The notes under the pieces: generated by a model | Seen by the model: the letters and a program-made list of their open reading frames with translations, nothing else | What the model was told of the DNA's origin: nothing | Database searches by the model: none | In this document: positions 4,385-59,927 of the stretch, piece after piece | Numbering within the stretch: the stretch's first letter is position 1 | Layout: each line of letters starts with the position of its first letter | Assembly (NCBI GenBank): GCA_032718475.1 | Contig: JAUCBJ010004884.1 | Span: forward strand, 24,012 to 88,011 | Length of the DNA stretch: 64,000 nt | Reading direction: 5' to 3' | Source: Nemertoderma westbladi | Lineage: Eukaryota > Animalia > Xenacoelomorpha | Program-made: the position numbers and the translations under genes

Positions 4385-6158
4385 TCAATCAATCAATCGG
4401 CTTACTGGGCGGAAAAGCCAACCAACCACCAAGGTTAAGGCTGAATCACCAGCCGATCGCCTCAATGGTTGGAAAGCCCACTTTGAAAAGCTCCTCAATA
4501 ATGACAGGGTATTGCCAGATAACTTTATAGAAGTAAAGTGTCTGAGTCTGTACTCCCAGATATTCCCATTGGCGACATCTCCTTTGCAGAAGTGAAGGCT
4601 GCTGCAAAGAGCATTAAGACCAATCGTGCCAGTGGAGTAGATGGTGTTCCCCCTGAGGTCTTTAAAATACCTGAGTGTTTAAACCTCATCTATCCCATCA
4701 TAGTAGACATGTACCGAACAACAAGAGTCCCACAAGAAATGAAAACGAATAAGTTGGTGCCAGTTCCCAAGAAGGGCAACCTAACACTCTATGGTTCTTT
4801 TCGGGGAATCTCATTGATCTCGATTGCTGCAAAGCTATACAATAGGATTCTATTAAATCGCATCAGGGATCCCATTGAGAGACTGCTCCGTGGAAATCAG
4901 AATGGGTTCCGTAAAGGTCGTGGGACCATGGAGCCCATTTTGGCACTTAGAAGGATTATTGAAGAATTATCAAAAAAGAAAGACAGGCATCTGGCTGTTA
5001 TCTTTGTTGACTTCTTCAAGGCCTTTGATTCAGTCTCTCGCTCACGTATGTTCAGCATACTTTCATTATATGGGATTCCTGATGAAATTATTGCAGCAAT
5101 CAGATCAGTATACGATGGTTCGACAACATTTGTGTCTACTGTTGACGGTGACACAGAACCATTTGAAGTGTTATGGGGCGTCCTCCAAGGAGACACACTT
5201 GCACCATTCTGGTTCATTATTGTGGTTGACTATGTTCTACGCATGTCCTTAGATCATCATAATGATGATGGGGTGATGATAACTCCACCTACTGGCTCCA
5301 GAAGTCGAGGAAATCCTGCCAAGTACCTAACTGATCTAGACTTTGCTGATGACTTAGGAGTACTCTCAGAATCATTAGAGGGAGCCCAACGGCTCCTCAG
5401 CTCATTAGAACATGCTGCTTCTAGTGTTGGTCTTTTTATTAACTCCAGAAAGACCAAAATTCTGACAGTTAACTTTGAAAGTCCTCAGCAAGTCTCTGAT
5501 CGGATAAGCATAAGCTCAAAGGATGGTATGCTTGAGCATGTGGACGACTTCTGTTACCTGGGATCATGGATCCGGAAGTCAGGTGAGGACCTTCGAATAC
5601 GTAAGGGAAAGGCATGGGCAGCCTTGAATAGGCTTTCCAGGATTTGGAAGTCACCGAGAATTAATCGGAAACTTAAGGTCCGATTATTTAGAGCAGCAGT
5701 AGTTCCAGTACTCCTCTACGGGAGTCCATGCTGGGCTCTAACTGCTGAGGACACCAAATCTCTGGATGGCACATTCACAAGAATGCTACGCCGGGTTCAT
5801 TCTGTTAAGTACAATGCACACATCTCCAACCAGACACTATATAACATTGGAGGTATCTCATTGGTTCCCCCAAGCTTGACACTAGAACAAAATCGCCTCA
5901 GCTTTGCAGGACATTGCTTTCGCCGTGAGGACCAGCCAGTGCATAATCTTGTACTTTGGCAGCCTCATGGAGTGAATAAGCATGGTGGACAGCCCATGAC
6001 TTTCTTGAGACGCATCTTAAAGGACACTGGCCTTAAAGATGCGGATGATCTAGCAAATGTCATGGGTGATAGGGAGTTGTGGCGGTGCAATTTTGTTGAC
6101 AAGCCGGCACAGCATTCCTAAAAATGCAGCTGCAATGCAGCATGCCGATCCTAGTAGT
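4385..6158 (+). mobile_element. 5'-truncated RTE-clade LINE
   Basis: Contains an RT ORF; 3' tail of TAG repeats; 11-bp TSD ACATTAATTAA at 4374-4384 and 6159-6169. Confidence 0.85.
4538..6121 (+). CDS. Non-LTR (RTE-type) reverse transcriptase, N-terminally truncated
   Basis: Motifs PKKG..FRGISL, QNGFR, FVDFFKAFDSV, GVLQGDTLAP, DFADD, YLGS, VLLYGS. Confidence 0.9.
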   Translation: MSESVLPDIPIGDISFAEVKAAAKSIKTNRASGVDGVPPEVFKIPECLNLIYPIIVDMYRTTRVPQEMKTNKLVPVPKKGNLTLYGSFRGISLISIAAKLYNRILLNRIRDPIERLLRGNQNGFRKGRGTMEPILALRRIIEELSKKKDRHLAVIFVDFFKAFDSVSRSRMFSILSLYGIPDEIIAAIRSVYDGSTTFVSTVDGDTEPFEVLWGVLQGDTLAPFWFIIVVDYVLRMSLDHHNDDGVMITPPTGSRSRGNPAKYLTDLDFADDLGVLSESLEGAQRLLSSLEHAASSVGLFINSRKTKILTVNFESPQQVSDRISISSKDGMLEHVDDFCYLGSWIRKSGEDLRIRKGKAWAALNRLSRIWKSPRINRKLKVRLFRAAVVPVLLYGSPCWALTAEDTKSLDGTFTRMLRRVHSVKYNAHISNQTLYNIGGISLVPPSLTLEQNRLSFAGHCFRREDQPVHNLVLWQPHGVNKHGGQPMTFLRRILKDTGLKDADDLANVMGDRELWRCNFVDKPAQHS

Positions 6159-10700: not shown

Positions 10701-11705
10701 GTGGTCTAATGTATAAGTTAAGACGTCATATCTTCCCATTAGGTATATTGCGCCTGGTATTCATTGCTATCACTAATACAACCCTACATTCATTACGCAA
10801 TAACTCTGTGGGGAAATACGTTTACTTCAATACTACACCCACTTAAAACCAAAATTAATACAATTTTACGAACAATTACATTCAGCCATTATCAGGCATC
10901 ATCCACTCCACTTTACAAAAAGTTAAATATTTACCCATTGATAAACTGTATACACTCAAAGTAGCGAAAGTAATGTAGGATGTACAAATTGTGTACATCC
11001 TACATTATGTACATATGATGTACTACACAAATGCATATCACCCTTACAAGATCTATTCCACCGTGCTTCGGATGTACACGCACACGCCACCCGCTCGGCA
11101 AAAACTGACAAATTTTTTATTCCGAGAATATGACTGTTAGTGGGCAAAAATGCACTACAGTACCAGGGACCGATTGTGTGGAATTCAAAAAGTGACAACT
11201 TAAAAATCTACAGAATAAGCCGTTATTTAGTAGAAAGTTAAAAAAAAGTCTGCTTGAAAGTTTATGATTAAGCTGATTAGACTGTTAACTATAGTAACAA
11301 TTCTAACAATATACAATGCACTAGTCTTCATCAAAATGAAAAGTCGTCTTACATTTATGAGACTATTTTGAACTGTTGTTTATTACAGTCGTTGAAGTCA
11401 GTCAAAGTCACAGTCAAAGTTACATTGATTTGTCTGAACCTTTTAATCTGATATAATATGTCTCCAGAACCTGCAGCAGTACCGATTAGTATTAGCAGTA
11501 CTATTATTAGTATTATTCAGTGTATTTGAGTTAAGTTTAATTAATAATTACATGCATTGCATACGATTAACCTTAGTTGCAAACCGGTGGCAGCGTATAC
11601 TAGCACAAAACGTGCTATCCGTTGTCTCCGGCCGTAATCAGTAATTTGGTAATGGTACGTTAATTATTTATATTTACATATCGGAAAAAATAAATTGAGA
11701 TTGAG
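7745..11705 (+). mobile_element. Degenerate CR1/L2-like LINE (PHD finger, APE endonuclease, RT remnants), interrupted by a DNA transposon
   Basis: PHD-like CGFC...CNNCCTLYHLPC at 7805-7990; APE N-terminus LNCRSINK...LTFTETFL at ~8165-8270; GIPQGSLLGPLLF at ~10262; FADDT at ~10350; KYLGVRIDSDLSWKPHI; 3' end AATAAATTGAGATTGAG. Confidence 0.75.
8483..10061. mobile_element. Non-autonomous piggyBac-like DNA transposon with internal ~160-bp repeats
   Basis: TTAA at 8479-8482 and 10062-10065; termini CCCTATTA...TAATAGGG; GGTGCT(A/G)GCAC...AAGTTTG units repeated about 5 times at 9020-9730. Confidence 0.7.
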
Positions 11706-11749
11706 GCGGTACCCTGCCGTCCTGGGAGTCAGGATAAATATATGTAAAG

Positions 11750-12829
11750 ACGGCACTCTGCCGCCTTGGGGCTTAAGTTATAATTATATAAAGGCAGCAC
11801 TCTGCCGCCTTGGGGCTTAAGTTATAATTATATAAAGGCAGCACTCTGCCGCCATGGAGTTTAAGTTATAATTATATAAAGGCAGCACTCTGCCGCCTTG
11901 GGGCTTAAGTTATAATTATATAAAGGCAGCACTCTGCCGCCTTGGGGCTTAAGTTATAATTATATAAAGGCAGCACTCTGCCGCCTTGGGGCTTAAGTTA
12001 TAATTATATAAAGGCAGCACTCTGCCGCCTTGGGGCTTAAGTTATAATTATATAAAGGCAGCACTCTGCCGCCTTGGGGCTTAAGTTATAATTATATAAA
12101 GGCAGCACTCTGCCGCCTTGGGGCTTAAGTTATAATTATATAAAGGCAGCACTCTGCCTCCTTGGGGCTTAAGTTATAATTATATAAAGGCAGCACTCTG
12201 CCGCCTTGGGGCTTAAGTTATAATTATATAAAGGCAGCACTCTGCCGCCTTGGGGCTTAAGTTATAATTATATAAAGGCAGCACTCTGCCGCCTTGGGGC
12301 TTAAGTTATAATTATATAAAGGCAGCACTCTGCCGCCTTGGGGCTTAAGTTATAATTATATAAAGGCAGCACTCTGCCGCCTTGGGGCTTAAGTTATAAT
12401 TATATAAAGGCAGCACTCTGCCGCCTTGGGGCTTAAGTTATAATTATATAAAGGCAGCACTCTGCCGCCTTGGGGCTTAAGTTATAATTATATAAAGGCA
12501 GCACTCTGCCACCTTGGGGCTTAAGTTATAATTATATAAAGGCAGCACTCTGCCGCCTTGGGGCTTAAGTTATAATTATATAAAGGCAGCACTCTGCCGC
12601 CTTGGGGCTTAAGTTATAATTATATAAAGGCAGCACTCTGCCGCCTTGGGGCTTAAGTTATAATTATATAAAGGCAGCACTCTGCCGCCTTGGGGCTTAA
12701 GTTATAATTATATAAAGGCAGCACTCTGCCGCCTTGGGGCTTAAGTTATAATTATATAAAGGCAGCACTCTGCCGCCTTGGGGCTTAAGTTATAATTATA
12801 TAAAGGCAGCACTCTGCCGCCTTGGGGCT
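11750..12829. repeat. 44-bp tandem array, left part (about 24 copies)
   Basis: Unit GGCAGCACTCTGCCGCCTTGGGGCTTAAGTTATAATTATATAAA; split by element A. Confidence 0.97.
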
Positions 12830-13065
12830 TGTCATAAATTATACTTAGGCCATAGCTAATATCCAATATAAGATACAAGTATATTAGCTTGCCAATATTG
12901 TAAACTGTTGAAAGAAGTTGAAACATATGTTAATATTGGAGGTTTGCCGGCAGTATTGTAAAGTAAATATATATAGGTTATTCAATTTAGATAAAGATTA
13001 TTATTAAAGTTTATTAGAAGTTTGTAGCTATCATTTTCCTTTCAATTTATCCACAATTCACTATA
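12830..13065 (+). repeat. 5' LTR of element A (TG...TA)
   Basis: Direct repeat of 36301-36536. Confidence 0.95.
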
Positions 13066-13253: not shown

Positions 13254-15237
13254 ATGAACGAACCGCAACAGAAGACATCCAAAGAGACTCAAGCAACGAA
13301 AACGCCCTCAAACCAAGGGAGAGCAACTCTGATCAGTTCACGAAGTGGAGTACGTTCAGCAGCAACAAAACTAATGAAATCAATCGAAGATATTAGCACC
13401 TACGATGATCACAACAAAAACAGTAGACTGGCGATGTTGTTGGACTACAAAGATCGACTTAACTCATTAAACGAAAAGGTATGGTCTACCATGTCTGAAA
13501 CTGAACAGGACATTGACTCAGAGGTGTGTATAGAGTATGAGTTTAAATTAACAGATATTATTACTGGTTTTAGGTTATCATTTAAGACTTCAGAACGTGA
13601 TAGTAAAGTAGTATTGCCGGCAACCCCAAGTAACGATTTTGTCAGTACATCATACTCTAGTGCTGCTAATGCGTATGCAACCAGTTCACTAATTGCTAGG
13701 GATGTTTTGCCTAAACTAAGTCATGAAACTTTTGACGGTAATCCATTGCAATTTGTCACATGGCGTGATTCATTTATTAGCTCAGTTGAAGATTCTGGTC
13801 TACCAGATATTTTAAAATTGCGACATTTGCTACAATCATTAAAAGGTAGAGCCAAGGAACTTTTTAAAAACTTCCCTATTTCCGATGCAAACTATAAAAT
13901 AGCCTTGGATACATTACAACAGGAATATGGCCAAAAATATCGTATTATTCAGAGTCATATTGATGCTTTAAAGGGCATTTTTCATACTCACGGGAACACA
14001 TCCTAATTGCGTGCAGTATACAATACATGTACTACCACTATGCGTGCATTAAAAACATTAGATGTTCAACCAATTGAATACCAACGAATCATTATTCCTG
14101 AAGTATTAAAAACGTTAGATAATGACTTATCTAAACGTTTCTTACGAAAGAAAAACAATAACATTGATTCTATTGATTGGCTCATGGAAAATATTCACGC
14201 AGAACTAGCTACTATAGAAACACTAAATGAAATAAAATACGGCATTCAAATAAATCACAGCCAAGTTCAACAAAAATCAAGCTCATATGAACCACCTGGA
14301 TTGGCACCTTCAGCAGCGGCACTGGCTGTAAATGTCACAAAGCAACAACAAAACACTCACCAAAGACAATATTATTCTAGTACACAAAGGCCATCAAATT
14401 TCACAAATAAGGGTAAAGAAGTATCAAGGGGTAACACAACAACACCTAAATGCGTTTTTTGTGACCAACAACACTTTTCATCAAATTGTAATTTAATTCC
14501 CGAAGTTTCAAAACGAAAAGAATTTTTGAAGGACAAAAGGCGCTGCTTTAATTGCTTAAATGAAGGTCATAATATTCGTTATTGTTCACGACAAAAACCG
14601 TGTTATAAGTGTCATTACATGGGGCATCATACAGCTATTTGTACATGGAAAGATAAGACATATAATAGAAGTCAACAAGGCCCAGGAAATAATACAACAA
14701 CGGGTACGGCAGCTCAAAGTAACCTAGTAGGAGTAGTCCCTTCTTACAGTGACAATGACAATTATATATTTTTACAAACCGCGAAAGTCAAATGTGCCCT
14801 CGGTGTGGAGACTTCAATAAATACACTTTTCGATCAAGGTGCTACGTTAACATTCATTAGCAGACAGTTTGTCTTATCCCGAAGATAATGACTTTAATGT
14901 TGAGTTACTCATAGGAGCAGACCAATATTGGAAGTTCGTTTCTGGTACAATCATTCGAGCGACTAACTCTGACCTTGTAGCTGTTGATAGTGGCGTAGGT
15001 TGGTTACTGTCGGGTAGTATTTACAACAAAGTACACGCTTATTCCAATCACAAAGTTACAAATTTATGTACACCAGTTACATTAACAAATATAAGCTGCA
15101 ACAATCTTCAACAGAAAAACGATGATGACATGTTGTATAAATTATTCGAAACCTACTGCGATATAGAAAGTACAGGGATACAACCAGAAGATACAGAAGA
15201 AATGTTCAAGCATATATTCACATATGAACAAGGAAGG
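13254..15237 (+). pseudogene. Element A gag-protease region; in-frame stop at 14004-14006 and a deletion/frameshift near 14870
   Basis: LPKL..FDGNPLQFVTWRDSF (DUF1759-like); three BEL-type Cys/His knuckles (CVFC..H..C, CFNC...GH....C, CYKC...HH..IC); protease LFDQGA and LLIGAD. Confidence 0.9.
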
Positions 15238-15364
15238 TATAGAATTATATTCCCTAAATGCCGTGGATTTTCAAAATTTTATTTTTATTCGAATTAACTT
15301 TGTAAAGATTGCTTTGAGTTCTCATTCGTATTTGTTCTATCATTTGTACGCCTATTGGTCAAGT

Positions 15365-15451
15365 GGTTCAGTAGCTCAGTCGGTAGAGCGTTGGAAATTA
15401 TATGTGTAGTAGGTATTGAGTTCGAATCCTAGTAAGTGCGAATTAATTTTT
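15365..15451 (+). promoter_or_regulatory. tRNA-like Pol III internal promoter inside the LTR of element B (second copy at ~30045-30131)
   Basis: A box/D-arm TAGCTCAGTCGGTAGAGC; B box GAGTTCGAATCC at 15418-15429; T-run terminator at ~15447; acceptor and anticodon stems do not form. Confidence 0.7.
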
Positions 15452-15517
15452 GTGCAGAATTTCATCTCATTTAAATTGACCGCTACAAATTAAATTGCAT
15501 TCGTTTGTACCTAGATT

Positions 15518-15680
15518 AACCAATGAGACTGCAGTTATTAGATTGTATCCAATGTCGTGCAAGTTATACATTAGCTGGACCAATGGTTATCTTTAAAAAC
15601 CCAATATAATTATAGAATGTTCTCGATTGATTGCAGCACAAATTTGCTATATAAAGGTGCGATTTGTTCATTAGTTATCT
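15518..15680 (+). promoter_or_regulatory. Putative Pol II promoter of element B LTR: four spaced CCAAT boxes plus a TATA box
   Basis: CCAAT at about 15520, 15549, 15580 and 15601; CTATATAAAGG at ~15647; Inr-like TCATTAGTT at ~15668. Confidence 0.55.
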
Positions 15681-17961
15681 CATTGCTCTAACTCGTTGCA
15701 ATTCATTCTATTGAGTTATCTGATTTTGTTTATTCTGTCATTAGTTCTCAGATTACATTTTGTATTATTATCTGCAATAAATTCAGAAATACCGCTATCT
15801 GCTTTTCTTTTACCATGATTCACTACGGTGAACCCAGCTAAGGGACAGGATGGCCAGCTAGAGATCGGGCCGCAGCAATGAACGGGAACATCACGGGAAT
15901 GTAGGCAAGAGACAACCCGCAATACCATCTTGAGTTATTCGCCCATCGCCTGAAAGGTTAGACAGCGTTTGACGCCTTGCTACCTAAGTATAAGACCAAA
16001 AGATCAAAAGGTAGAAGTAGTGACACGCTGTGAGCCTAAAATTACATCTTAGGGACTGTACTGTCTTGATTCAGGAAAAAACCACAGTAGACCTTCACAT
16101 TCCTATGGGGGGGGAGAGAGAGAGCGCAGGCAGATACTAGTACGCAGATAGGACGTAGGCACACCGGTACGAAGCATACAAATTGGTAGGGTGCAGCAAA
16201 CTGTACGCCTAACTCTTGCTAAGTACAGGTGTGTGTGCGACTATTTGTAGTACGACAGTGTCCATTGCATTAGAACTTGTAGGCTAGGGGGGTTGCTGTG
16301 TTTTCACCTGAATTGGGATTGTACCGTTCAGGCGGTAGGGCAGTTTACAGCTAGGCGCAAATAAATTGAGGCTATTAGGGATACTAACATCTACCGTGTC
16401 CCCGCCAACGCCCTAATAGGAAGTTACCCGGACTACCTGGGTGACTAAAATTCTAGATAGGAGCCAGGATAGCTATTAGTAACTGTACGCCTACAGTAGT
16501 AAACTAACACATCTCTTCTTAGTATCAGGGACCTGGTACCTAAAATTGCCGAATTCTGGGCGTAGCATTAACCTTATGCCTGAATTTGAGTCCTGGAAAT
16601 ACGCAAGAGGGGAAGGAACCTTATCATTCGTGAGTATTGGACCTACAAGTTGAAAAATTAGAATATTCGTAAAATGCACACCGTACCCAGTAATTATATA
16701 TGTGAAGGAGCAAAACTGTTTTTGACCGTTCAGAATTAACACACGCGCGTTAGAAATTTATTTACACCTCAAAATATATAAAATTAACTTTTGTCCGTAC
16801 TGTGCTTTGCCCGCTAGTTAGACATCTCCAAATCTCTGCCTGTACCTAGCTAGCGTCTCTTCGCCCAAACCATATAAATCACACCGCGGCAAAGTGTACG
16901 AACCCCTTAGTCCGTCAGTGAGTCAGCCTGACTTTAGGATTCGCTGCGCGGGATTTTGTTTTATCGAAGTTTGTCTGCTCGTAGACTGTTTTCTGCCTCA
17001 CCGGTTATAAGAGATCGATACTGCAATATATTCGCTTACTTAGAGTTTACTGTTTTGGTGAGAAGGTCAGATTTATGATTTGATTTACAAACTTTACAGT
17101 AAGATATTGCAGGTATTGTTACTGTCTCTTCGAATAGTAGGAATGTGTTTTACTGAACTACGGTTCGGTAGGACTAAAGTTATTTGAAAATTTTGTATTT
17201 TGAGGTAAAAGTTTGTATTTGATTAGCTAAGTGCTAATTTTTTTTTTTTTTTTGAAATAAAATTTGATTTAAACCGCGTGTAAAATATTTTGGAATTGAA
17301 TACCGGTGTTTAAAAGGGTTTAAATACCATATTGTACCGGTACAAAATTTTTTCGTAAAGTAAAACCTAACTCTTTTGTTTTTTCAGGATTCAGAACTCA
17401 TTTCTAGACTGTAACGGGAGCAAGACCGTGTTTAGCAAGTTTGGGAGATAGATAACCCAACAACTTTGGTTGGGAAAATCGCGTTTCGTCCGCAACGTTA
17501 AAAACGGAAGGGTTCACTTCACGTCCGGTTTGTATCTGGGAATCTGTTTTTCTGGAGAATTATTGGAGTGGGTGAGTTCGAAAAGTTGCATAAATAAGTT
17601 AGGCATTACTGTATTAGTTAAAATTATTGTGGGTTCCACTGTCTCAAGTATTTATGCATTCCGTAAGATTTCTTTGTTCATTGCTGAATTAGTCCGTATT
17701 ATTGTATTTAATTTACCTTTTGATAACGCATATCGTTATCCGATTTATTTGTTATAAAATTGGCCGCTAGGCTAATTTTATTATATACTTATTCCGTGAC
17801 ATTTATTTGCTGTAAAATTGGCCGTTTAGGCTAATTTTATCCATCTGCTATAAAATCGGCCGGTAGGCTAATTTTATATGACTGTAATTAGTACCGTTTA
17901 GATATAAATACGGTAAACTCGATACTTTGACACTCACTTTACTTGACTTACAACTATCGAA

Positions 17962-20900
17962 ATGAGTGACAAACAAGACTATACGAAGAATACACAAACC
18001 GACTATGACTCATGTGACGCGGATAAGTCAGCAGCGGAAGAACAACAGGGGAAGACTCGCGAGCCTACCAAACCTACACCGTGTGCGTCACCAGTACATC
18101 CAGCGGGAGTACCGGATGCCGTAGTACGAGGCGACGGCAGGACCGAGGACTTTCTAACTGTTCCGCAACCTAGATACAGGGAAACGGACATGGTAAGTTC
18201 AGCAGGAAGTCAGGAAAGCGTTGTTAGGAGCGTCGGTGGATACATGGCGCATATAACCAGGAGTATTGGAGAAGGCCAACGCATATTAGACGAGTTGACC
18301 GCTCCGATGTCTCGATTCGAGTTCTACACCCTCCAGGTTAGAGTGCAAACTAGAGTACACAAGTCCGTAGATAACCTAATTGGTCTACAAGATCTAGCTA
18401 GACAGAGACAGGACATGGATACTCAACTTAGAATCCTCGAGAAACTAATGATCGCTAGAGAGAAACTGATTCAGTTTAAGTCGACGATTAGGCAGACACA
18501 ACAGGAACAAGTAGACCAGTTGTTAGGTGAGTCAGTTTCGGACGAATTATTGCAGCCCGAGGAAGAACAGGAACTGTACCGACTGGATGAACAATTGAAA
18601 CATCTGACGGACCACTTACGTATGTGCGGCGAAGACGTCGGCGATTTGGAAACCGTGCCGGAATATACGAGGGAAACTTCACCCGTACGAATCGAATCGG
18701 CACCGGGAATACTGGACCAATCGTTAGTGAGTATTCGCAGCGAAATTGGCGAGATAAGTATAGTGACGTCAGAAATTTCCAGACAGCAACAACAACATGA
18801 TAGACAACAACGGGAAGATGAGGAACAAGCTCAATTGTTGACGGCACAAGCGGCGGTAGAAGAAGAAAAACTACGTGTTGCGAATGTTGCAAGAATCTCT
18901 CATCTGCAAGAACAAGCCGAGTTGGAAGCGGCCGAGATGGAAAGGTTGGAGTTGGACATCGCCCAACAAGCGGCAGCGGCCGAGTTAGCGCAACGAACGG
19001 CAGCAGCAGCGGCTGAGTTAGAGCGACAGAGGTTAGTATCAGAAGCGAGAGCCGAGATGAAAAAACGGCAAATAAAGGCTCAATCAGCTATACGACAAGC
19101 GGAGTTCGAGGCGCAACAACAACAGACGGAACAACGCGAGAAGGAAGTTAAACTTCATTTCGAACTCGGGAAGAAGGCGAGAGAATTAGCCAACGCGAAG
19201 GAAGATCTGGATCTACAAGCCCGTGATCGATCGATGAGATCTCGAGACGGACATGACTTGGACCAGATAGAGGTAAGACATCGCCAAATTCAGGAACGGA
19301 AGAAGGAAGGAAGCGTAGGAGCACCCGGACGGGAACGACAATTAGTAAAGGACTTGTGTCAACGATTCCCACAGGTAACTCATATGTTTGCACCGGTTAC
19401 GACTAAGGAACCTGTTTCGATTGCTGGTAGTAGTAATATTTCTCCTATCCATGGTGCGACGGAACACAGGTTTGTTATTCCGGACAAGTTTACACCGCCA
19501 AGAGCAACGTCGTCGCCTATTCCGAAAGTCAAGGTAAGCAACCCGCCGATTACAGATCGTAGTAGTTTGTTGACTGGACCTGCACTACTGACGACTAAAC
19601 AGGTGAGTCCACCGTCGACACCTAAACCCGTTACACACTACGCTTACCCAATGACGTTTCGACCTGCAAGGCAAGTCGATTCAGCTGTTGCTCGACCACC
19701 GGTTCAGTTTACATCGCAATCTACGACTTCGAGGAAGACTTGTGAGCCTACCGAACAACGGAGAACAGTGGATACGCGACCGGTTCAGTTTACATCGCAA
19801 TCTACGACTTCGAGGAAGACTTGTGAGCCTACCGAACAATGGAGAACAGTGGATACGCGACCGGTTCAGTTTACATCGCAATCTACGACTTCGAGGAAGA
19901 CTTGTGAGCCTACCGAACAACGGAGAACAGTGGACGATATTCCGAAACGAAACGTGAGAATTCGTACGACGCAACGGACGCGAGCACGTCGACCACCATA
20001 TCCAGATGATAGTAGTACTTCAAGCGAATCGGATTACCCGAAACGCGAGGTATTTAGAACAGGGGCGGCCGATGAATATAAACGCGAGCGTTCAGACAAC
20101 TCCTTTGTAGACAATCCTCCACAGAATACACCAACACAGAAGGCGTTACAACCAACGGACGCAATCAGTACACAACAGTTCGCCGACATCCTGCGACCAG
20201 TTGTTAACAAGTTGGCTCAGATCGAGGAACGTCTGGAGGAAGGTTACACCGACAGTTCGAGAAATTCCGAATTCGAACACAATAGACACCCGAATGAACC
20301 ACAAAGACCGGTACCTTCAAAACATACATCGTATCAGGGAAAAGCGCCAAGAAGGGAGAACATCAACCAGGTTACCAACCAAGGACGCGAAACTCTGAAC
20401 GTTGCCGAGGAGATAGCGAAATTCGCAGCCAGGCAAGGATTGCCGGTACAACAACCACCGAAGTTTTCCGGTAGTTCAAAACACTGGCACACATTCGTAG
20501 ACTATATCGAATCTCAGATCGCCGTGTGCGCCTTTACATCACGGGAGAAGTTTAATTACCTGCTTCAAACGTTGTCAGGAGAACCTAAACGTTTGGCAGA
20601 GACCTTCGTTGGTGTACCGGACGCCTTCGAACTAGCGTACGATCGTTTAACTTCGATATACGGAGGTACAGTCAGTATGGCCAGGTCAGTAATAGAGGAA
20701 CTCTGTAAGGGAGGGGCTATTACTAAACCCGTCGACTTATTAAAACTTGCTGACGAGATAAGGAACGCTATCACTACTTTAAGATCCATTGGACAACTTG
20801 ACTACGGGAATACCCCTACAGTCCTATTAAAGATCATAGGACGACTCCACCATCGACTTCGTCGGGAGTGGAGAAAGATCGAATACCAGCGAGAAGAGCG

Positions 20901-23900
20901 GGGTGGATTCTTAAAACTGGAGGACGTGTACCTTTTAATATCCAGGGAGGCAGTAGTAGAAACTCGATCCAACTACACTGACCAGCACATCGTGGCAGAA
21001 GGAATCACATTGCCATCCTCCAACCGACAAAAACCCCAGACAACATCTACCAAGACGGCCACTTACGCCACACCAACGGAATCACGACAATTCTCGGACG
21101 GTAGTAGGGTATCTGCGCCCATTGGGACGAAACAGACGAGACAGCAACTTGGTACCGACTTCAGTGGCTGCCAATACTGCGAGCATTTAGGCAAGCGGTA
21201 TATCGGTCACAAGTTGCGAAGTTGTCGACAGTTTCGCGAGTTGAACTCGGAAGAACGACGGCTGCAAATACGGCCATTGGACTCTTGTTGGCGGTGTACG
21301 CGACACGGACACGTCCGTAAAGATTGCCCAAATACCGACACTTGTCCATCCTGTGGACGCAACCACGACGGTCTGCTCCACACGGACAGCCACACGCCGA
21401 CAAAACGCTTCGCCAGGGAACACCCGGAAGCAGCAGCGAGATGTGATGCGGCCTACAGAAAACGAGAATCGAAAACGACTCCAACCTTCGTGACCCATAT
21501 TGAGGATTGCTTCTCAGAACAATCCGGATCGTCGGACGAAGAGTCAGAAGACGACGACGTATATTCGGATGGAGATGAACAGCCATCGATCGCGCTTCTG
21601 ACTACTGACCAACTGAAGGGATTCAGTGTAATTCCGATTAAGATTACTGGCACAAAGGGGAGCAAGAGAATCTACGCGATTCTAGATTCAGCCTCATCTC
21701 ATAGCTACGTGGATGAAAAGATAGCTGACGTCGTGACGGATCTCAGACAAGGTAAGCGCGTCAGTTATACCGTAAGTAGTATGCACGGACAGCGTGCAAT
21801 ACCAGTGACACGAGTTAAGTTGGACTTAGACTCTCTTCTTCCAAAATCGCAACACAGCGAGAGGGAGAGGTCTTTGTTACCCTTCAAGGATCTGACTTTT
21901 GCGGCCACCAAAGACTTTAGTAACCTACTAGGTCCGGTCCCAGAACAATCCTTGGAGGACCGTAAGTATTTCAGACACCTTGGTGTACCTGAATGTCCTG
22001 TCAATTATAGATCGGTAGCAATGCTGATCGGGACGGACCAATTCAACCTACATCAGGTGTGGGAAACCAGACCATCGGCAGTCGTAGCGGGAAACGCATA
22101 CGCCTGCAGAACGCCGATAGGGTGGTATACTCGAGCGCCTGTGCGCACACTAGACGTAAGTGACGAGGAAGAAGATGTACAAAGTACATGTAGTTTACTA
22201 ACTACAAATTCAATCCATTCCTTTTCACACGATGTGGACCATACTACCTTACATACAAGACATGACAGACGTGTAACTAGTATGATAAGTCACAAGGAGC
22301 AGCTAATTCACCAGGTGCGGAAATCGATACAACATTGGCCTCCGTTATACGACAACAAGTCTAACACCATCCCTAAGGACGCCGAAATCAAGAAACCAAA
22401 AGAGGGGAAGGCAAAGAAAAAGACGACGGCGGCGAAACTCAAGAAAAAACCGAAGGCGAAATGGAAAGATATAACTTCAAAGGTCAAGAGAGGAAGACTT
22501 GCGAGCCTTTCTACACCAGACATATCGCCAGACGGTCAACCAGACACGTTACCAGACGGTCAACGAGACACGTTACTAGACGGTCAACCAGATGTTTTGC
22601 CAGACATATCACAAAATGTTCTACCAGACACTAGTGACATACTGACAAACAGTAAAGCCGCAGTTTCTCTATTGGAGCGGCCTTCTATTGACAAACAACC
22701 AGATACGTTACCAGACGTATCGCCAGACACATTACTAGACAGTCGACTAGACATTTTGTCAGAAACATCACAAAATGTTCTACCGGACATTAGTAATGTA
22801 TTGACTAACAGTAAAGCCGCAGTTTCCCTATTGGAGCGGCCTTGTATTGACAAACTACCAAATTTGACACACTTGAGCAACCATAAGCACGGTGAAACCT
22901 CATGTATTGCAGATGTGGGTAGTACCTACGCTAATGTAAATACAGGTGTTACTTTGCGCTCAAGAGACATACCGAACTTGCAACCTATGGTGAAACCTGG
23001 GATTAATGTCGGCAGAAAAATAAGTTTACCGAAACCTGCTGACCCCATAGAGTTCAAACCACCATTAACGATCGACTTACAAGGTACTGACAATCAAGGT
23101 AAGAAGACGAAGAAGGACAAATTACTTGTAGACCCGGACGGATCAACAGTCAACAAGGGAATACTTACCGGCGGACCCGTGGGCCCTTCTAGTAATTCAA
23201 AACCTTCCAAAATCTCCATTGAATTACCTGATGACGTCACAAATACTCACGTCGACCGGATTGTAAACTTAACAGATTCTTGGACGAACGCTTGCCGAAA
23301 ATTAGCGTGGATTGTACGTTTTGTACAATACGTTAAAGGCAAACGTGACTTTACACGTCGACTTACATTGGCTGAGATTGACAGGTGTGAAATTAAATTA
23401 ATTCGCCATTACCAACTGCGATATTTCGCGCGCGAATTCACATCCATAAATCAAGGTCAACCTATTAAGTCGTCACCAATACTGAGTTGGAGTCCGATAA
23501 TTTATAATGGCTTACTTTGTCATAAATCTCGGCTTCAAAACATTGACTTTAACACAAACTTTAGGTACCCAATAATAATACCGCAACACCACGAACTACA
23601 ACGTGCAATGATACTGGACGCACATTTACATCTGAAACACGCTGGAAGACACCACTGTCTTTCCTACTTACGTACAAGATTTGTATTGATTAGACCTAGT
23701 AAAGCGTTAAGTTCAGTGACACGTACGTGTATTATTTGTAAAAAGGTACATTCTAGAATAGGTACCCAGGAAATGAGTGAACTTCCACAAGCACGACTTC
23801 AAGCATTCAGACCACCTTTTACAGAGACTGGAATTGATTGCTTTGGTCCCATACATACGAAACGTGGACGTATACTAGTAAAACGCTGGGGACTGATTTT

Positions 23901-24759
23901 CACATGTATGTCCAGTAGGGCAGTTCATATTGAACGTGTGATGGATCTTTCCACCAACGCGTTTATACTAGCATTGCGGCGATTTATCGCTAGACGCGGA
24001 CTAGTGAAATGCTTGTACTCAGACCAAGGGACAAACTTTGTTGGTGCTCGGAATGAGATTGCTAGAGCCCTTAAGAAATTAGATCATGATCAAATCTCGA
24101 ACGAACTACAACCTCATAAGATTGTTTGGAAGTTTAATCCTCCAGATAGTCCATGGAGAGGCGGAGTCTGGGAGAGATTGATTAGATCTATCAAGACAGC
24201 CATGGCAAAGGTCATTCCAGTAAACCACATACTGACAGACGACCAACTGACAACATTGTTTGTTGAAATCGAGGCAATACTAAATACTAGACCAATAGTA
24301 TTAGTACCCGATGACAAACAATCTCAATTTGCTTTAACACCGGCACACCTGCTAATGCAGGCACCGACCACTTTGACGCCGATTTCTATTCCAATAGAAA
24401 GCGATAGCTACGGTAGAAAAGCGTGGAAAATCACGCAACTACTGGCTAACAAATTCTGGGAAATATGGCAAAACCATTATTTGTCCTCTATTTCTGCCAG
24501 AACAACATGGTACAATAATACCCGCGCATTAAAGCCGGGAGATCACGTGCTGTTAGCAGAAGTGATTCTAAAAAGACGCTTCTGGATAACAGGTGTAATT
24601 TTAGCCACACATCCATCTATGGATGGAGTGACAAGAACTGTGACGGTACGGACAATTGACGGTCGTACAGTAGACAGACCGACTCAACGTCTCGTACTTC
24701 TTGAAGAGACTCGTAACGAGTCTGGAGACTACAAATCTCCACCTAATACTAGTAAATAA
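17962..24759 (+). CDS. BEL/Pao-type Gag-protease-integrase polyprotein lacking RT and RNase H (2265 aa, uninterrupted)
   Basis: Coiled coil; PPKFSG..HWHTF (DUF1759-like); three Cys/His knuckles; protease AILDSAS..LIGTD; a low-complexity/repeat linker with no YxDD; then HHCC (HLHLKH..CIIC), catalytic IDCFGP / SDQGTNF / GGVWERL and the BEL integrase C-terminal domain. Confidence 0.92.
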   Translation: MSDKQDYTKNTQTDYDSCDADKSAAEEQQGKTREPTKPTPCASPVHPAGVPDAVVRGDGRTEDFLTVPQPRYRETDMVSSAGSQESVVRSVGGYMAHITRSIGEGQRILDELTAPMSRFEFYTLQVRVQTRVHKSVDNLIGLQDLARQRQDMDTQLRILEKLMIAREKLIQFKSTIRQTQQEQVDQLLGESVSDELLQPEEEQELYRLDEQLKHLTDHLRMCGEDVGDLETVPEYTRETSPVRIESAPGILDQSLVSIRSEIGEISIVTSEISRQQQQHDRQQREDEEQAQLLTAQAAVEEEKLRVANVARISHLQEQAELEAAEMERLELDIAQQAAAAELAQRTAAAAAELERQRLVSEARAEMKKRQIKAQSAIRQAEFEAQQQQTEQREKEVKLHFELGKKARELANAKEDLDLQARDRSMRSRDGHDLDQIEVRHRQIQERKKEGSVGAPGRERQLVKDLCQRFPQVTHMFAPVTTKEPVSIAGSSNISPIHGATEHRFVIPDKFTPPRATSSPIPKVKVSNPPITDRSSLLTGPALLTTKQVSPPSTPKPVTHYAYPMTFRPARQVDSAVARPPVQFTSQSTTSRKTCEPTEQRRTVDTRPVQFTSQSTTSRKTCEPTEQWRTVDTRPVQFTSQSTTSRKTCEPTEQRRTVDDIPKRNVRIRTTQRTRARRPPYPDDSSTSSESDYPKREVFRTGAADEYKRERSDNSFVDNPPQNTPTQKALQPTDAISTQQFADILRPVVNKLAQIEERLEEGYTDSSRNSEFEHNRHPNEPQRPVPSKHTSYQGKAPRRENINQVTNQGRETLNVAEEIAKFAARQGLPVQQPPKFSGSSKHWHTFVDYIESQIAVCAFTSREKFNYLLQTLSGEPKRLAETFVGVPDAFELAYDRLTSIYGGTVSMARSVIEELCKGGAITKPVDLLKLADEIRNAITTLRSIGQLDYGNTPTVLLKIIGRLHHRLRREWRKIEYQREERGGFLKLEDVYLLISREAVVETRSNYTDQHIVAEGITLPSSNRQKPQTTSTKTATYATPTESRQFSDGSRVSAPIGTKQTRQQLGTDFSGCQYCEHLGKRYIGHKLRSCRQFRELNSEERRLQIRPLDSCWRCTRHGHVRKDCPNTDTCPSCGRNHDGLLHTDSHTPTKRFAREHPEAAARCDAAYRKRESKTTPTFVTHIEDCFSEQSGSSDEESEDDDVYSDGDEQPSIALLTTDQLKGFSVIPIKITGTKGSKRIYAILDSASSHSYVDEKIADVVTDLRQGKRVSYTVSSMHGQRAIPVTRVKLDLDSLLPKSQHSERERSLLPFKDLTFAATKDFSNLLGPVPEQSLEDRKYFRHLGVPECPVNYRSVAMLIGTDQFNLHQVWETRPSAVVAGNAYACRTPIGWYTRAPVRTLDVSDEEEDVQSTCSLLTTNSIHSFSHDVDHTTLHTRHDRRVTSMISHKEQLIHQVRKSIQHWPPLYDNKSNTIPKDAEIKKPKEGKAKKKTTAAKLKKKPKAKWKDITSKVKRGRLASLSTPDISPDGQPDTLPDGQRDTLLDGQPDVLPDISQNVLPDTSDILTNSKAAVSLLERPSIDKQPDTLPDVSPDTLLDSRLDILSETSQNVLPDISNVLTNSKAAVSLLERPCIDKLPNLTHLSNHKHGETSCIADVGSTYANVNTGVTLRSRDIPNLQPMVKPGINVGRKISLPKPADPIEFKPPLTIDLQGTDNQGKKTKKDKLLVDPDGSTVNKGILTGGPVGPSSNSKPSKISIELPDDVTNTHVDRIVNLTDSWTNACRKLAWIVRFVQYVKGKRDFTRRLTLAEIDRCEIKLIRHYQLRYFAREFTSINQGQPIKSSPILSWSPIIYNGLLCHKSRLQNIDFNTNFRYPIIIPQHHELQRAMILDAHLHLKHAGRHHCLSYLRTRFVLIRPSKALSSVTRTCIICKKVHSRIGTQEMSELPQARLQAFRPPFTETGIDCFGPIHTKRGRILVKRWGLIFTCMSSRAVHIERVMDLSTNAFILALRRFIARRGLVKCLYSDQGTNFVGARNEIARALKKLDHDQISNELQPHKIVWKFNPPDSPWRGGVWERLIRSIKTAMAKVIPVNHILTDDQLTTLFVEIEAILNTRPIVLVPDDKQSQFALTPAHLLMQAPTTLTPISIPIESDSYGRKAWKITQLLANKFWEIWQNHYLSSISARTTWYNNTRALKPGDHVLLAEVILKRRFWITGVILATHPSMDGVTRTVTVRTIDGRTVDRPTQRLVLLEETRNESGDYKSPPNTSK
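19696..19936 (+). repeat. 81-bp (27-aa) in-frame tandem repeat, 3 copies, in gag
   Basis: RPVQFTSQSTTSRKTCEPTEQRRTVDT repeated three times. Confidence 0.95.
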
Positions 24760-25418
24760 TTAGGAGTTTACAAACAGATTTCCACTTACCTGTACACTGT
24801 AGTAAGGACAGCGGTAGAATTCCATTGTCTTTATATGTCAACATTGAGGGTAGTACCCTTATGTGTCACATAGGAGCGGGATTTGTAGGTATAAGAAATG
24901 GAATTCTACTTGGAACTCACAATATTGAGACATTTTCGAAATTTTAGACAATCCATTTGGATTTGAAAAATTTTTAAAAATTTTCTCCAGTGAATATATT
25001 TCAGGGTACAGTCGGGTGGAACTTAAAATTAGAGAAACAAGAGAGGAAGACTTGCGAGCCTTTCTTAAAATTTTAATTAAATTTTACACGGTCTTGTTTC
25101 AATAAGTTACGTCAAAATAGACTCCCCTATATTTATTACTAATTCTTGACTGCTTATTTTCTGATAATAGTTTGGGATCAAAAAGTGAGTATTTTAGACT
25201 CACAGCCAGTTTAGCCCAAATTCGTTTTTATTTCGGCAAAAATTTTAGATAAGAAGCAGCGTGTCATTAAAGAAACCCTAGATCTTAGGCTATGGGTAGG
25301 AGGTTAGAGCGTTGTCAAGCCCAAAGGGCAGACGAAACTCTCATGTCTCCTCACAACTAACTACAAACTCTGTTGTATTCCCTCTAGTAGTAATGATTAT
25401 GTAACTACACCCCTAATT

Positions 25419-28253
25419 ATGGAGAAAGGGATACAAGGAGAGCCGAGATGGGGATATGATATCCAGGAGGAGGCAGCAGCGCCATTCGAAAGATTTGGAG
25501 CCAAGGACTATACTATATTTGGTATAAAGGAATTATCGGAAAGTACAGCGAAACTCGCGAGAACTAAATATGACTCGAACGTATTAAAGAGAAGGCAAAA
25601 TGCATTAAACGAAAGAATCGAAAGTTTGCGCCAAACCTTCAACGAACTTTACCCGTACGACGCTTTGTGTGATACGGGAGACATTAGCGAAGACCCCGAT
25701 ACCGAAATTAGTCGTTTGTATCATACCATGCAATACCTAAAGGCGCACGAACCTATGCCCGCGGTAAGAGATGAATTCGATGGAATGCATCTTTACAGAC
25801 GAACTCGAGGGGATGATAGAGAAACCAAGGAAGCATTTTCAGTGTATAAACTTTATTATCAATGCGGTTCTTGTATGCGCGAACAACGAAATGCGATTCC
25901 GATGCGTTTGAATAAGGAAAATCCCGAACCGATATTGGCGAGGTGTTCGAATCATCAACAACTACGCTACCAGGAAGGAGGGTATCCTTTATCGAATCCA
26001 TATCATTCATTTGCTATGACCGGACCAAAAGCGGGAGAAACTGTCATTTACCCACCTAAGGTTGTTGAACCCGATGTATTTGAACTTACGCTGGACGAGG
26101 CAAATCAGTCAACCCGCGAAAAGAAAGAAGCTCTTAGCCTATACAGAGCCTACAAGGCTTTCGAGAAAGGTGAGATGGAAGAATGGGGCGGAAGACTCGC
26201 GAGCCTACCTTGCCATTGGACGTCACACGATCAAACTCCAGCTAAGGAGATGACACCGGAAGTTTTCGAGAGCATAAACTTTGCTCAAAACGTTATTCAG
26301 AGACTACAGATTGCATCCCCGGAGAGGACCAGAGAAATGCAACCGTATAGTACTTCAACTACGAAACCATTGAGTACGACACTCAACTTTCCTATTAGTA
26401 TACCAGTCCGACAGGATACGACGTACGAAATACCCATCGTGGATCATCCAGAAATCATTTCGAACTTGGAGTTTCTTCCTGCAGTTGTTTTCAGCGATAT
26501 GAGTAAGATATATGATTTACGTAGACATATTACTCAAAAGGTCGTGTACAACGTTCCACCTCATATTCAAGATTTCAAGGAACTGGATAGAGCTGGTGCC
26601 GATATAGCTCCGAGTAATCTGAAAGGATATTTAACCAAGACGATTCGTTTATGGATTGGAACCGGAACCTTCGAGTCGGATACAGATATTGCCGCAGATT
26701 GGCGAGGTAAGGTTATTCGTTTCGAAGATGATAAGGACATAGAGAAGATTTGGCAACCTTCGGAAGAATTGTTGGATGAATGGAATAGGACGTTTAGATC
26801 GTTTCAGGAAAACGGTTACATGTTTTACGATAACGAGGGCGGCAGTCATCAGCAGAGTTTGACTTCTAAGACTATACAGATTAGAGCGGCGGACGGAGTC
26901 CTGCACGTTTTCAGTAGACAGAGGAGCGACAAACGAATGCCGATACCTCCAGCGAATACAAAGCGACACCATCTTATCACCGATATAGTAAAGAAGATGG
27001 ACCAAGCTTGTAATATCGACGCTAGAATGCTACCGAAGATGGTAAGAAACATGATTTTAGATAAAACTGTTGTAAAGATTGGATCAGGAGTAAGGGAGGA
27101 TTTAATTAGCGACTTCGCCGGCATGACGGACAGCGATGACCGACTACCGACACCTTACGTCGACACTCGACCTCTTATTTTGTGGTCTATAGAACAGGGA
27201 TATTTTCGTGAGTATAATACTCAGAAGACTGGAACTGGATACATTTCCTACCTGTTATTCAATTGGGATTATAAGGAAAATAAGAGAAACAAGTATATTG
27301 AAACTTATGGAGAAGGTGATACTCCAGATATGAGTGAGTTTGAATCACAGCTTAAATGGAGAGGATGCGTGTATTGGGCTATTACGTCACCTCCAAGAGC
27401 GGTCTTACAATATTATTTAGCAATAGAGTCGTCAGTGAATGTTTGCCTAATCGCCGACATTGTGTCTCGGACTCTCAAAAGACATCCACTTTGTCTCGGA
27501 GATGATCATACGTTCTACATGGAAGGGAGAATTCGTACCGACGTGTTTAGACGATTCCTTGAACCCTTCTACAACTCCGACGCTCAGTGTAATGCCTTTA
27601 CTCGAGCAGGATTTAGTATATTTCGAGATGTGTATCTTCGCTGTGCGGGATCTCTTATCGAAAGACCATCTATGTTTACATTGTTACCCTATGAAGGAGA
27701 ACGTATCGTGGAGATTACGGAAGAATCACGGCAGACGCGCGCGCCTATCGGTCACCTCGGTGATGATTTCGAAGTAACTACTACGATCGCTGACGATCCT
27801 TTAGAGGAACTTCTTGAGATAGAAAGGAACCTCCCGAAGAAATCTCAGACGGAGATTCGACAACTTGAAGCAACAGATGCTATAGTTTGTATACAACCTT
27901 CAGAAACCTACCAACCCATAGACCCAGATGATTACGATTATAGTGTGGGAGGAAGCGCTCGACCGATTGGAGATCTTATATACGAACGAGTGTGGTACCC
28001 TGCCAATACGATGTGTAGTAAATGTGGCGTCGCTGGACATCATATGACAAAGTGCAGTGGAAAGCACATTACTACGACTCAGCTAATCTGTGGATGGTGT
28101 GGGGATCAAGGGTCTCATACCTTTTATACTTGCTGGAGATTTATGGCTCAATGTACTTACTGCAATATAAAAGGACATCGAGCATCTGAATGCCAACTAA
28201 GAGACATACCTTATGAACACGAATCTGTAAAACTCGTGAGGAAATTATTTTGA
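25419..28253 (+). CDS. Element B ORF2: DEDD (DnaQ-like, WRN/EXD/mut-7-type) 3'-5' exonuclease-like domain plus three CCHC zinc knuckles
   Basis: ExoI-like YMFYDNEG...TIQIRA; ExoII-like LPKMVRNMILDKTVVKIGSGVREDL; ExoIII-like YYLAIE; knuckles CSKCGVAGHHMTKC, CGWCGDQGSHTFYTC and CTYCNIKGHRASEC. Confidence 0.7.
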   Translation: MEKGIQGEPRWGYDIQEEAAAPFERFGAKDYTIFGIKELSESTAKLARTKYDSNVLKRRQNALNERIESLRQTFNELYPYDALCDTGDISEDPDTEISRLYHTMQYLKAHEPMPAVRDEFDGMHLYRRTRGDDRETKEAFSVYKLYYQCGSCMREQRNAIPMRLNKENPEPILARCSNHQQLRYQEGGYPLSNPYHSFAMTGPKAGETVIYPPKVVEPDVFELTLDEANQSTREKKEALSLYRAYKAFEKGEMEEWGGRLASLPCHWTSHDQTPAKEMTPEVFESINFAQNVIQRLQIASPERTREMQPYSTSTTKPLSTTLNFPISIPVRQDTTYEIPIVDHPEIISNLEFLPAVVFSDMSKIYDLRRHITQKVVYNVPPHIQDFKELDRAGADIAPSNLKGYLTKTIRLWIGTGTFESDTDIAADWRGKVIRFEDDKDIEKIWQPSEELLDEWNRTFRSFQENGYMFYDNEGGSHQQSLTSKTIQIRAADGVLHVFSRQRSDKRMPIPPANTKRHHLITDIVKKMDQACNIDARMLPKMVRNMILDKTVVKIGSGVREDLISDFAGMTDSDDRLPTPYVDTRPLILWSIEQGYFREYNTQKTGTGYISYLLFNWDYKENKRNKYIETYGEGDTPDMSEFESQLKWRGCVYWAITSPPRAVLQYYLAIESSVNVCLIADIVSRTLKRHPLCLGDDHTFYMEGRIRTDVFRRFLEPFYNSDAQCNAFTRAGFSIFRDVYLRCAGSLIERPSMFTLLPYEGERIVEITEESRQTRAPIGHLGDDFEVTTTIADDPLEELLEIERNLPKKSQTEIRQLEATDAIVCIQPSETYQPIDPDDYDYSVGGSARPIGDLIYERVWYPANTMCSKCGVAGHHMTKCSGKHITTTQLICGWCGDQGSHTFYTCWRFMAQCTYCNIKGHRASECQLRDIPYEHESVKLVRKLF

Positions 28254-29068
28254 TGAGTGGGAAGATTTAGCCGACGAACATGTATCGGCACAAAGAAGAC
28301 GGTTTCCGATGAGAGCGCATCTCGGATTTTGGGCGGCAAATCCTCAAACGATGATGTCGGAAGGATATATCTCCGCTATGCCCCAATATGACGAACTTAT
28401 CGAGGTTGTCGATATATTGCCCCACGACAGCGGATTCCGAGTGGTGCGCGAGTATCTACTACAGATTCACCCGGATAACAAAAACACGTGGAATTTTCAG
28501 AAAGTCGTTAACCGCATTACGTATGGTGAATTATAAACGTATACGAGCGAGCGTATTCGAGGAAGAGGAGGTCCTAGAGGCGACAAATATACCAGCCACT
28601 CCGGTTGCGCCGTCTGCACGTCACCCTCGGGAGGACGGACAGGGTAAGATCATACGGGTCCAGAAAGTGGGCCAACAATTAAAGAAAATTATTAATATAG
28701 AAGAACGCAAGGGAGTTGAGCCGACCATTCGAGTTACTCGAGATACGGTATCGCTTCCAAGAGAACCAGTAGGAGGATCGGGACATACACCAGCTGATCA
28801 ACAGGGGGCGCAAGCTACTCTTGGGTCTGCGTCGTCCGCTTCTCGCGCGTTCCCAGACGTTCTACCAACTGTAGTGACAACTGATCGGTCACGAGGAATC
28901 GGTCGAGGTTTTGGGATGCCAAATAGACGAATTTGCGAAGAAATAGTCGCACCGTCTCTCAACGTCCCAAGTAAACCAGTGACTCGCCCCATTAGTCCCA
29001 TATCGCGAGCAAAGTCACCTGTGCGCAGTTTTCGAGGACGCGGCAGGGCTCGATCCACTAAGCGATAA
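28254..29068 (+). CDS. Probable frameshifted C-terminal continuation of ORF2 (or a separate ORF3) with an Arg/Ser/Pro-rich basic tail
   Basis: Removing one T from TTATTTTGATGAG joins KLF to DEWEDLADEH...MRAHLGFW (to 28536); an overlapping frame then runs to RGRGRARSTKR* at 29068. Confidence 0.5.
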
Positions 29069-29917
29069 AAGGGAGGGCAAGGGTGGACGGAAGACTCGTG
29101 AGCCTTTCTTATGATTTTGTGATTTATTTGAATTTATATTTATATTCGTGTTTATTCCGAACTTATGCAATTTGTATTGTTCCGAATTTATGAAATTTAG
29201 AAATAAGAACTCATATTTAGTAAAACTTATATTTGGTAAGACTTATATTTGTAAGAATTTATATTTTATATTTGTAATTATTCCGAACTTATGCAATTTA
29301 TATTATTCCGAACTTATGCAATTTATATTGTTCCGAATATTATGCAATTTATATCTTATAAGTAGTATTTGTATTTACAGTGAAATAGAAAGTAAGAGTA
29401 GATGGAAGACTCGTGGGCCTTTCTTATAGTTTCATTTGTAAAGTGTTATATTTTGTATTTAGAAAGTTTTATAGTCAGAAAGTTTTGTGCTTAGAAAGAC
29501 TCATATTTGTAATTATTCCAAACTTATGCAATCTACATTTAGGTACGAAAGTATTTGTAATTATTTTGTATTTATGCAATATTTGAGATGCAATAGTAGA
29601 TGGAAGACTCGCGAGCCTTTCTTATTGTTTTCATTTATTTGTATTTGTAATTGTTTGAATTTATGCAATATTGAGATGCAATAGATTTATATTGGTGAAT
29701 TTAGTTTAGATTTATATTGTACTTACTTAGTAAAGCCTTAAATACGTAAAGTTTGAATTTGTAATTATTTTGTATCGAATCATTACGTAGAAAGGAAGTA
29801 TTATTTGAAATTTAATTTGTAAATATGTAAGTAAGCCCTAAGTATTCTATAGTTTGATTGATTATTGGTGAAAACCGTATATTTTATGCACGATAATATC
29901 CTGTTTTCATGGAGCGG

Positions 29918-31815: not shown

Positions 31816-31820
31816 GAAGG

Positions 31821-59769: not shown

Positions 59770-59927
59770 GTAGGGAAATTGGCTGGCCACTCCAGTGTCT
59801 GTGTATATAATTTAGGCAATGTATGTATATCTGCTCATGCTCTATGCAATATTGTGTTGTCCAAATTGATAACGTATTGGTCAGGCTAATACTTAATAAT
59901 TAAAAATTATTAATAATTAATTAAGAT

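Follow-up and report, generated by a model that had tools for sequence, protein, structure and literature searches.

How does an LTR retrotransposon begin minus-strand DNA synthesis if its 5′ LTR is not followed by a primer binding site (PBS) for a host tRNA? This question is raised by element B, which occupies positions 15238–31815 of the 64,000-nucleotide stretch of Nemertoderma westbladi DNA analysed here (the window, to which all coordinates refer). A sequence-only reading of the window had claimed that the PBS position of this element is complementary to an 11-nucleotide segment of its own LTR, and that the element primes its own minus-strand synthesis with this segment, by analogy with Tf1/sushi-group elements, which self-prime with the first ~11 nucleotides of their RNA. 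PMC7175516 describes how the first 11 bases of Tf1 RNA pair with the PBS, after which RNase H cuts behind base 11, and PMC10085805 describes a three-duplex structure for the Tf1 PBS region.

Element B lies on the forward strand and is bounded by a 5′ LTR of 1899 bp (15238–17136) and a 3′ LTR of 1898 bp (29918–31815). A self-comparison of the window, together with a junction check, reveals that the LTRs are 99.2% alike, with 14 substitutions and one indel between them. The flanking target-site duplication GAAGG (15233–15237 and 31816–31820, no strand assigned) has a length of 5 bp, which falls within the 4–6 bp expected for BEL/Pao elements. The LTR termini are TA...TA and not the TG...CA of the same definition, and LTRs that end in TA are also present in element A, described below, and in the locus L073. 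The 5′ LTR terminates in ...GAATA, and its boundary can be moved by one base because a G follows both LTRs. For comparison, we used contigs from four of the seven listed public runs (X1, X3, X4 and X5). Two X4 contigs depart from the sequence of element B after 17136, which fits the LTR end used here. A rare variant in X1 and X3 has the end of U5 (17065–17135) swapped for 35 other letters with a short hairpin of their own; it rejoins at 17136 and retains the PBS side. Ahead of the 3′ LTR, at the position of the polypurine tract (PPT), lies a short purine-rich tract (29909–29917, forward strand), whose end recurs at loose ends of X3, X4 and X5. We conclude that element B is a young BEL/Pao insertion with intact LTRs. 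It is nested, as is its left target-site duplication, within the pol region of element A, another BEL/Pao element with LTRs at 12830–13065 and 36301–36536 and a PBS that begins with TGG. The LTRs of element A have the termini TG...TA, and the element itself lies within a 44-bp tandem array (11704–12843 and 36537–36863).

The coding content of element B agrees with this class and reveals what the element lacks. ORF1 (17947–24759, forward strand, 2270 amino acids) encodes Gag (DUF1759), zinc knuckles, a protease motif, repeats, integrase and DUF5641, and Pfam matches place Gag, protease, integrase and DUF5641 in one frame, as is expected for BEL/Pao. BEL-type families account for at least 116 of the 120 matches listed, with 32–40% identity to element B. 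The reverse transcriptase (RT) and RNase H that autonomous BEL/Pao elements carry between protease and integrase have no Pfam match in element B, and tblastn with five full polyproteins detected neither domain in any frame of 17137–29917. Judged by its Gag and integrase, element B is therefore a non-autonomous BEL/Pao element that would require a helper. The sequence-only reading had called the element BEL/Pao, which its domains and relatives support, but had mentioned neither the missing RT and RNase H nor the need for a helper. Non-autonomous LTR elements that borrow RT are known, with intact LTRs, PPT, Gag, protease, integrase and recent insertion. Element B differs from these in that it keeps an open frame of 2270 amino acids from which RT–RNase H is wholly missing, and in that it carries two orphan ORFs. 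One of these, ORF2 (25308–28253, forward strand, 981 amino acids), has three C-terminal zinc knuckles and no clear relatives: searches returned no homologues, and profile-level matches were confined to the zinc knuckles. A language-model lead for ORF2 (proteins combining a 3′-5′ exonuclease with CCHC motifs; 0.87, low recognition) was confirmed neither by profile search nor by fold, and the structure model of this protein has a pLDDT of 31. The other, ORF3 (28355–29068, forward strand, 237 amino acids), has no Pfam family. Three more RT-less open Gag-protease-integrase frames of BEL type (P0053, P0067 and P0093) occur among the 120 matches listed and do not group with element B.

The region downstream of the 5′ LTR is arranged as had been claimed. 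The LTR is followed directly by GTAGGAATGTG (17137–17147, forward strand), and TGG, with which the PBS of a tRNA-primed element starts within a few bases of the LTR, is absent from 17137–17170. The exact reverse complement of this PBS is located in the 3′ LTR at 30776–30786 (forward strand). The corresponding candidate primer in the 5′ LTR (16096–16106, forward strand), which sits 859 nucleotides into the 1.9-kb LTR, forms ten exact pairs and a terminal G-U pair, as its final base is T in this copy and C in the family. Position 16106 is C in 40316 of 40342 depth units in X1, 57707 of 57769 in X3 and 775 of 775 in X4, or more than 99.8% of contig depth. The T is therefore private to this copy, and the pairing of the family is 11 of 11. 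The X5 contigs cover neither the segment nor the PBS. Among the 40 variants listed of 275, which are too few for a claim of invariance, none falls in 16096–16105 or in the PBS. No splice-extended primer was found for element B (best spliced match, 8 nucleotides). The 21 bases that follow the PBS, searched as an exact pattern, matched no metagenome stretches, and two viral_contigs scans returned no relatives.

A complement of this length is seldom expected by chance. Among 20000 Markov LTRs, an 11-mer match arose in 12 at offset 0 and in 58 at offsets 0–5; of 12741 pseudo-PBS positions, 14 had such a match. Once spliced matches were admitted, the frequency was 5 of 1000 with consensus splice sites and 14 of 400 with any GT..AG pair. 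Overall, the chance of the complement in element B is 0.06–0.5%, rising to 3.5% under the loosest search.

The sequence-only reading had suggested that covariation between the PBS and the LTR segment be sought across related families. Relatives were gathered by integrase alignment from 80 of 298 confirmed metagenome loci and from seven genome-collection loci; with L087 left out for lack of homology, the 86 loci analysed form 50 families, of which 33 lie outside the count because their contigs include no LTR end. The end was set from two flanks in nine families without TGG (f001, f013, f017, f024, f035, f050, f053, f060 and f073) and is less sure in two others (f044 and f027). Five families found by a generic junction search alone (L010/L016, L023, L049, L061 and L084) were not counted as tests, since such a search without a known LTR end yields many background matches of 10–14 nucleotides. 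Separately, loci L081–L086 are BEL/Pao elements in assemblies labelled as bacteria, where they probably represent animal host DNA in those bins.

Each of the 11 families that lack TGG and have a definable LTR end carries a complement of 10–14 nucleotides in its own LTR. Ten matched at first pass. The remaining family, f073, was missed when the 3′ LTR was used, which has TG in place of the acceptor AG, and was recovered on re-reading the 5′ LTR by eye, which has AG and gives 10 nucleotides. In the two TGG controls, element A and L083, no such complement exists (3 and 5 nucleotides). Null sets for the individual families gave 0–7 matches per 400, and also 0 and 5 per 1000. The PBS letters differ among families, as evident from GTTACTTCGA, GTTCGAATTTG, GTTTGAAGCTTT, GTAACGAAAAATCT and GTTAAAAATTTGTA, and the complement is kept with different letters at 35–40% integrase identity, which supports self-priming by the very test that had been proposed. 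When each PBS was paired with the LTR of every family, the own LTR gave at least 10 nucleotides in 11 of 12 non-TGG rows and the LTR of a different type did so in 8 of 162 cells, some of them chance cells of 11–13 nucleotides. Because one primer core is common to five of the 11 families, the number of independent types is eight with element B, and not 12. Within families, one member (L064) has an uncompensated PBS mismatch, and L063 has a complement of 11 nucleotides where L060 has 13.

Other features recur in the same arrangement. In every family tested, the paired stretch has the polarity required for priming and begins 0–6 nucleotides past the LTR end, and the PBS of all these families starts with GT, as does that of element B. 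Downstream of the primer, the LTR contains a poly(A) hexamer in 11 of 12 families and also in element B, which further shares with its relatives a primer ending in AC. The contiguous 10-nucleotide complement of f001 at offset 0 is arranged as in element B. An integrase tree with 33 rows places element B among the self-complementary families with support of 99/92, apart from element A and L083. Element B is nonetheless a long branch, and a tree that places it with the TGG element L083 is not rejected (AU p 0.166); the relatives thus bear on element B only indirectly.

These data weigh on the possibility that a host tRNA fragment or another small RNA primes element B, with the LTR match a product of chance or a structural helix and self-priming restricted to the relatives. 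Half-tRNA priming is known in Ty1/copia lineages according to PMC6317226, the tree placement of element B is not exclusive, and a match of this length has a chance of 0.5–3.5% in the wider searches. Against this stand the lack of TGG, the offset of 0 and the GT start shared with f001, the perfect allele in three runs, and relatives whose PBSs are too different to suit one tRNA and instead track each family's own LTR. We consider priming by a host RNA to be rather improbable. No tRNA genes were found by ARAGORN within the 64-kb window. Both LTRs contain a tRNA-like stretch (15361–15451, forward strand, and 30041–30130) that combines motifs resembling the A and B boxes with a run of T, and we take it to be a possible RNA polymerase III promoter. 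It was not called as a tRNA (no genes by ARAGORN and no matches in Rfam), and we rejected it as a primer source because it is not complementary to the PBS.

The most surprising part of the finding, as judged from the nucleotide sequences, is that most relatives appear to build their primer by splicing. Only element B and f001 have a contiguous complement; in the other ten families, its parts come together only when a GT..AG intron within the LTR is removed. In nine families, introns of 77–371 nucleotides split a complement of 11–14 nucleotides into parts of 4+7, 5+7, 6+6, 4+10, 6+7 or 7+7. Although the search accepted any GT..AG pair, the donor is GT(A/G)AG in all seven of seven spliced matches, with a pyrimidine-rich acceptor, and such donors represent 16 of the 469 GT sites in these LTRs. 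Contig L050, whose molecule type is not stated, carries a 5′ LTR spliced exactly at the predicted joint and an unspliced 3′ LTR, with at least 79 nucleotides of exon upstream of the primer. Predicted pairing reaches at least 0.4 in 7 of 12 spliced leaders and in 1 of 12 unspliced ones, and is 0.02 or lower in 5 of 12 spliced leaders when the whole is folded. In these relatives, the spliced 5′ copy would serve for priming, and the unspliced 3′ copy would carry the intron to the next generation. Survival of the LTR intron requires precisely this asymmetry, which was observed once, in L050. We consider it probable on balance that a BEL/Pao branch without tRNA priming builds its primer from its own RNA, mostly by splicing of the 5′ LTR, and that element B, a member with neither the intron nor RT, instead splices both primer and PBS out of its mRNA.

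Where the RNA of element B begins bears directly on how its segment could be used. A promoter-like cluster 450 nucleotides upstream of the primer segment (15520–15655, forward strand) consists of four CCAAT boxes together with a TATA-like motif at 15648, and from these motifs it is likely to be an upstream promoter. In one X4 contig, 15956 is followed directly by 17388, with good GT..AG sites at the joint and a shorter side of 23 nucleotides. The corresponding candidate intron (15957–17387, forward strand) takes out both primer segment and PBS. The joint is absent from the X1, X3 and X5 contigs. Because it needs a transcript start upstream of the segment, it suggests that element B transcripts start upstream of 16096. 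The X4 record says 'DNA?', yet the run looks like RNA, as evident by this joint and by an excess of A>G changes (88 of 183 places). One X4 contig of 701 bases (record 20, 16290–16993) differs at 100 letters, with A>G making up nearly all of the differences listed, and looks like hyper-edited double-stranded RNA of the element B LTR. An AATAAA downstream of the primer segment (16360–16365, forward strand) would define R. A second AATAAA at 15776 precedes the segment, and RNAs that end there would therefore be unable to complete the strand jump.

Secondary structure predictions depend strongly on the assumed start. When the leader is folded from 16096 or 16097, the predicted pairing between segment and PBS approaches 1.0, and when folded from 15680, it is 0.0 and the segment is buried in a local hairpin. 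For element B, the predictions comprise the central duplex, a long U5 stem upstream of the PBS (17009–17130, forward strand, with 17009–17029 paired to 17104–17130) and, immediately downstream of the PBS, a 12-bp hairpin with a UACG loop (17147–17174, forward strand). The central duplex can be extended to −32.9 kcal/mol by a 7-bp helix between the G/GA purine tract that immediately follows the predicted cut (16107–16124, forward strand) and the U5 end (17125–17131). Energies as low were obtained in 2 of 1830 controls in which the purine tract was replaced and in 59 of 1854 in which the U5 end was replaced. This second helix competes with the U5 stem and has a probability of only ~0.1 in the whole-leader fold. 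That the PBS sits among several predicted helices, and that splicing-dependent pairing could mark RNA for packaging, are points in favour of a selected pairing that regulates packaging, dimer formation, splice choice or translation while priming proceeds by another route. We regard this as the least probable of the explanations considered, since the paired stretch keeps its place beside the LTR end and its priming polarity in all families tested and no other primer site is present.

Because of the upstream promoter cluster and the X4 joint, we rank first a route in which the primer is cut from within the RNA. Transcription of element B would start upstream of the segment, from the promoter with the TATA-like box at 15648, and the segment would anneal to the PBS. 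The RNase H of a helper element would then cut the RNA 3′ of the last C of the segment, and this freed 11-base LTR piece of the element's own RNA would prime the minus strand. RT would copy U5 back to the cut. It would then jump to the region that extends from the cut to the poly(A) site (AATAAA at 16360), as present at the 3′ end, and the segment and everything upstream of it would be templated from the 3′ LTR. The alternative splice from 15956 to 17388 would yield an mRNA that carries neither primer nor PBS. We infer the role of the helper RNase H, the RNA cut and the strand transfer, and assign this internal-cut route a probability of roughly 55%. That element B self-primes by one route or another is likely, and readings without self-priming are, even taken together, unlikely.

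Ranked second is a Tf1-like start, in which a second start site at 16096–16097 would make the segment the first 10–11 bases of the genomic RNA and the upstream promoter would serve to make the spliced mRNA. The predicted folds favour such a start, the 11-nucleotide length is the same as that described for Tf1 (PMC7175516), and the Inr-like TCACATT that had been pointed out is indeed present and overlaps the first bases of the segment. This motif is weak evidence, since 19 sites of the form YYANWYY occur in the same LTR, and there is no TATA-like box ~30 nucleotides upstream of 16096. Furthermore, the X4 joint and the exon joints of the relatives speak against this detail, as an exon ahead of the primer means that the lineage has no need of a 5′-terminal primer. 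From the sequences, a 5′-terminal primer is probably not the rule for this lineage, and we consider such a start in element B unlikely, although self-priming itself has good support in the lineage and is likely in element B as judged by its sequence.

Third in rank is a primer supplied in trans, either by a short LTR-only transcript (polyadenylated in the 5′ LTR, or from a solo LTR or a helper) or by the 3′ LTR copy. In each LTR copy a poly(A) hexamer lies downstream of the primer, the full 11-mer is carried by both copies of element B, and a helper particle is needed by this element in any case. Supply in trans is nevertheless very improbable in our estimation, since the extra helices around the PBS are formed most simply in cis and the spliced joint of L050 is on the same contig as the PBS.

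Among known systems, the closest parallel to element B is offered by Tf1/Tf2 of Schizosaccharomyces pombe and the Tf1/sushi group, which likewise lack a tRNA PBS and have an 11-nucleotide LTR-encoded complement and flanking helices. Element B possesses the LTR-encoded stretch complementary to the PBS by which that group is recognized. However, Tf1/sushi elements are Ty3/gypsy chromoviruses, whereas element B belongs to BEL/Pao by its domains and relatives. Its primer also lies 859 nucleotides from the LTR start and is probably internal to the RNA, the primer is split by an intron in its relatives, and it encodes neither RT nor RNase H. Self-priming has further been predicted for the TAR lineage of Ty1/copia (Houba, Osr-1) and the Tcn1 clade in plants, on the basis of an LTR complement of at least 10 nucleotides that starts 0–5 nucleotides after the LTR (PMC6317226, passages available). 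Element B has such a complement, but these elements belong to other superfamilies, and those passages include no splice-assembled primer. The tRNA-primed BEL/Pao elements (A and L083) share superfamily, 5-bp target-site duplication and domain order with element B, and differ in that TGG directly follows their LTR and a self-complement is absent.

Self-priming is described for Tf1/sushi gypsy elements (PMC7175516) and predicted for one copia lineage (PMC6317226). We found no report of it for BEL/Pao, including in the passages available of PMC5443660, PMC3601003, PMC8220671 and PMC11042837, in a search that was weak in part and covered subscription journals and repeat-database reports thinly. 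The term 'PBS' is absent from the main text, as available, of the BEL/Pao papers PMC3118150, PMC554778 and PMC2774666, and sequences in the supplement of PMC3118150 may bear on the claim. If our interpretation is correct, BEL/Pao would be the third LTR superfamily with self-priming, and would represent a further origin. A primer that arises where two exons meet would couple reverse transcription to the spliceosome of the host and would provide a simple means of distinguishing the 5′ from the 3′ LTR copy. Such elements might also become independent of the tRNA pool and escape silencing by tRNA fragments, and their primer arrangement would explain why PBS-based annotation misses them.

Several other coding regions are present in the window. 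Long frames overlap on both strands at 41725–45542 (825, 458, 341 and 201 amino acids); two of these were checked and have no Pfam family, and the group is flanked by an exact 538-bp repeat at 38393 and 45630. Elsewhere (4523–6121, 58947–59810 and 61563–62405), the window carries two more RT frames and a frame that resembles an exon of a sodium/calcium exchanger.
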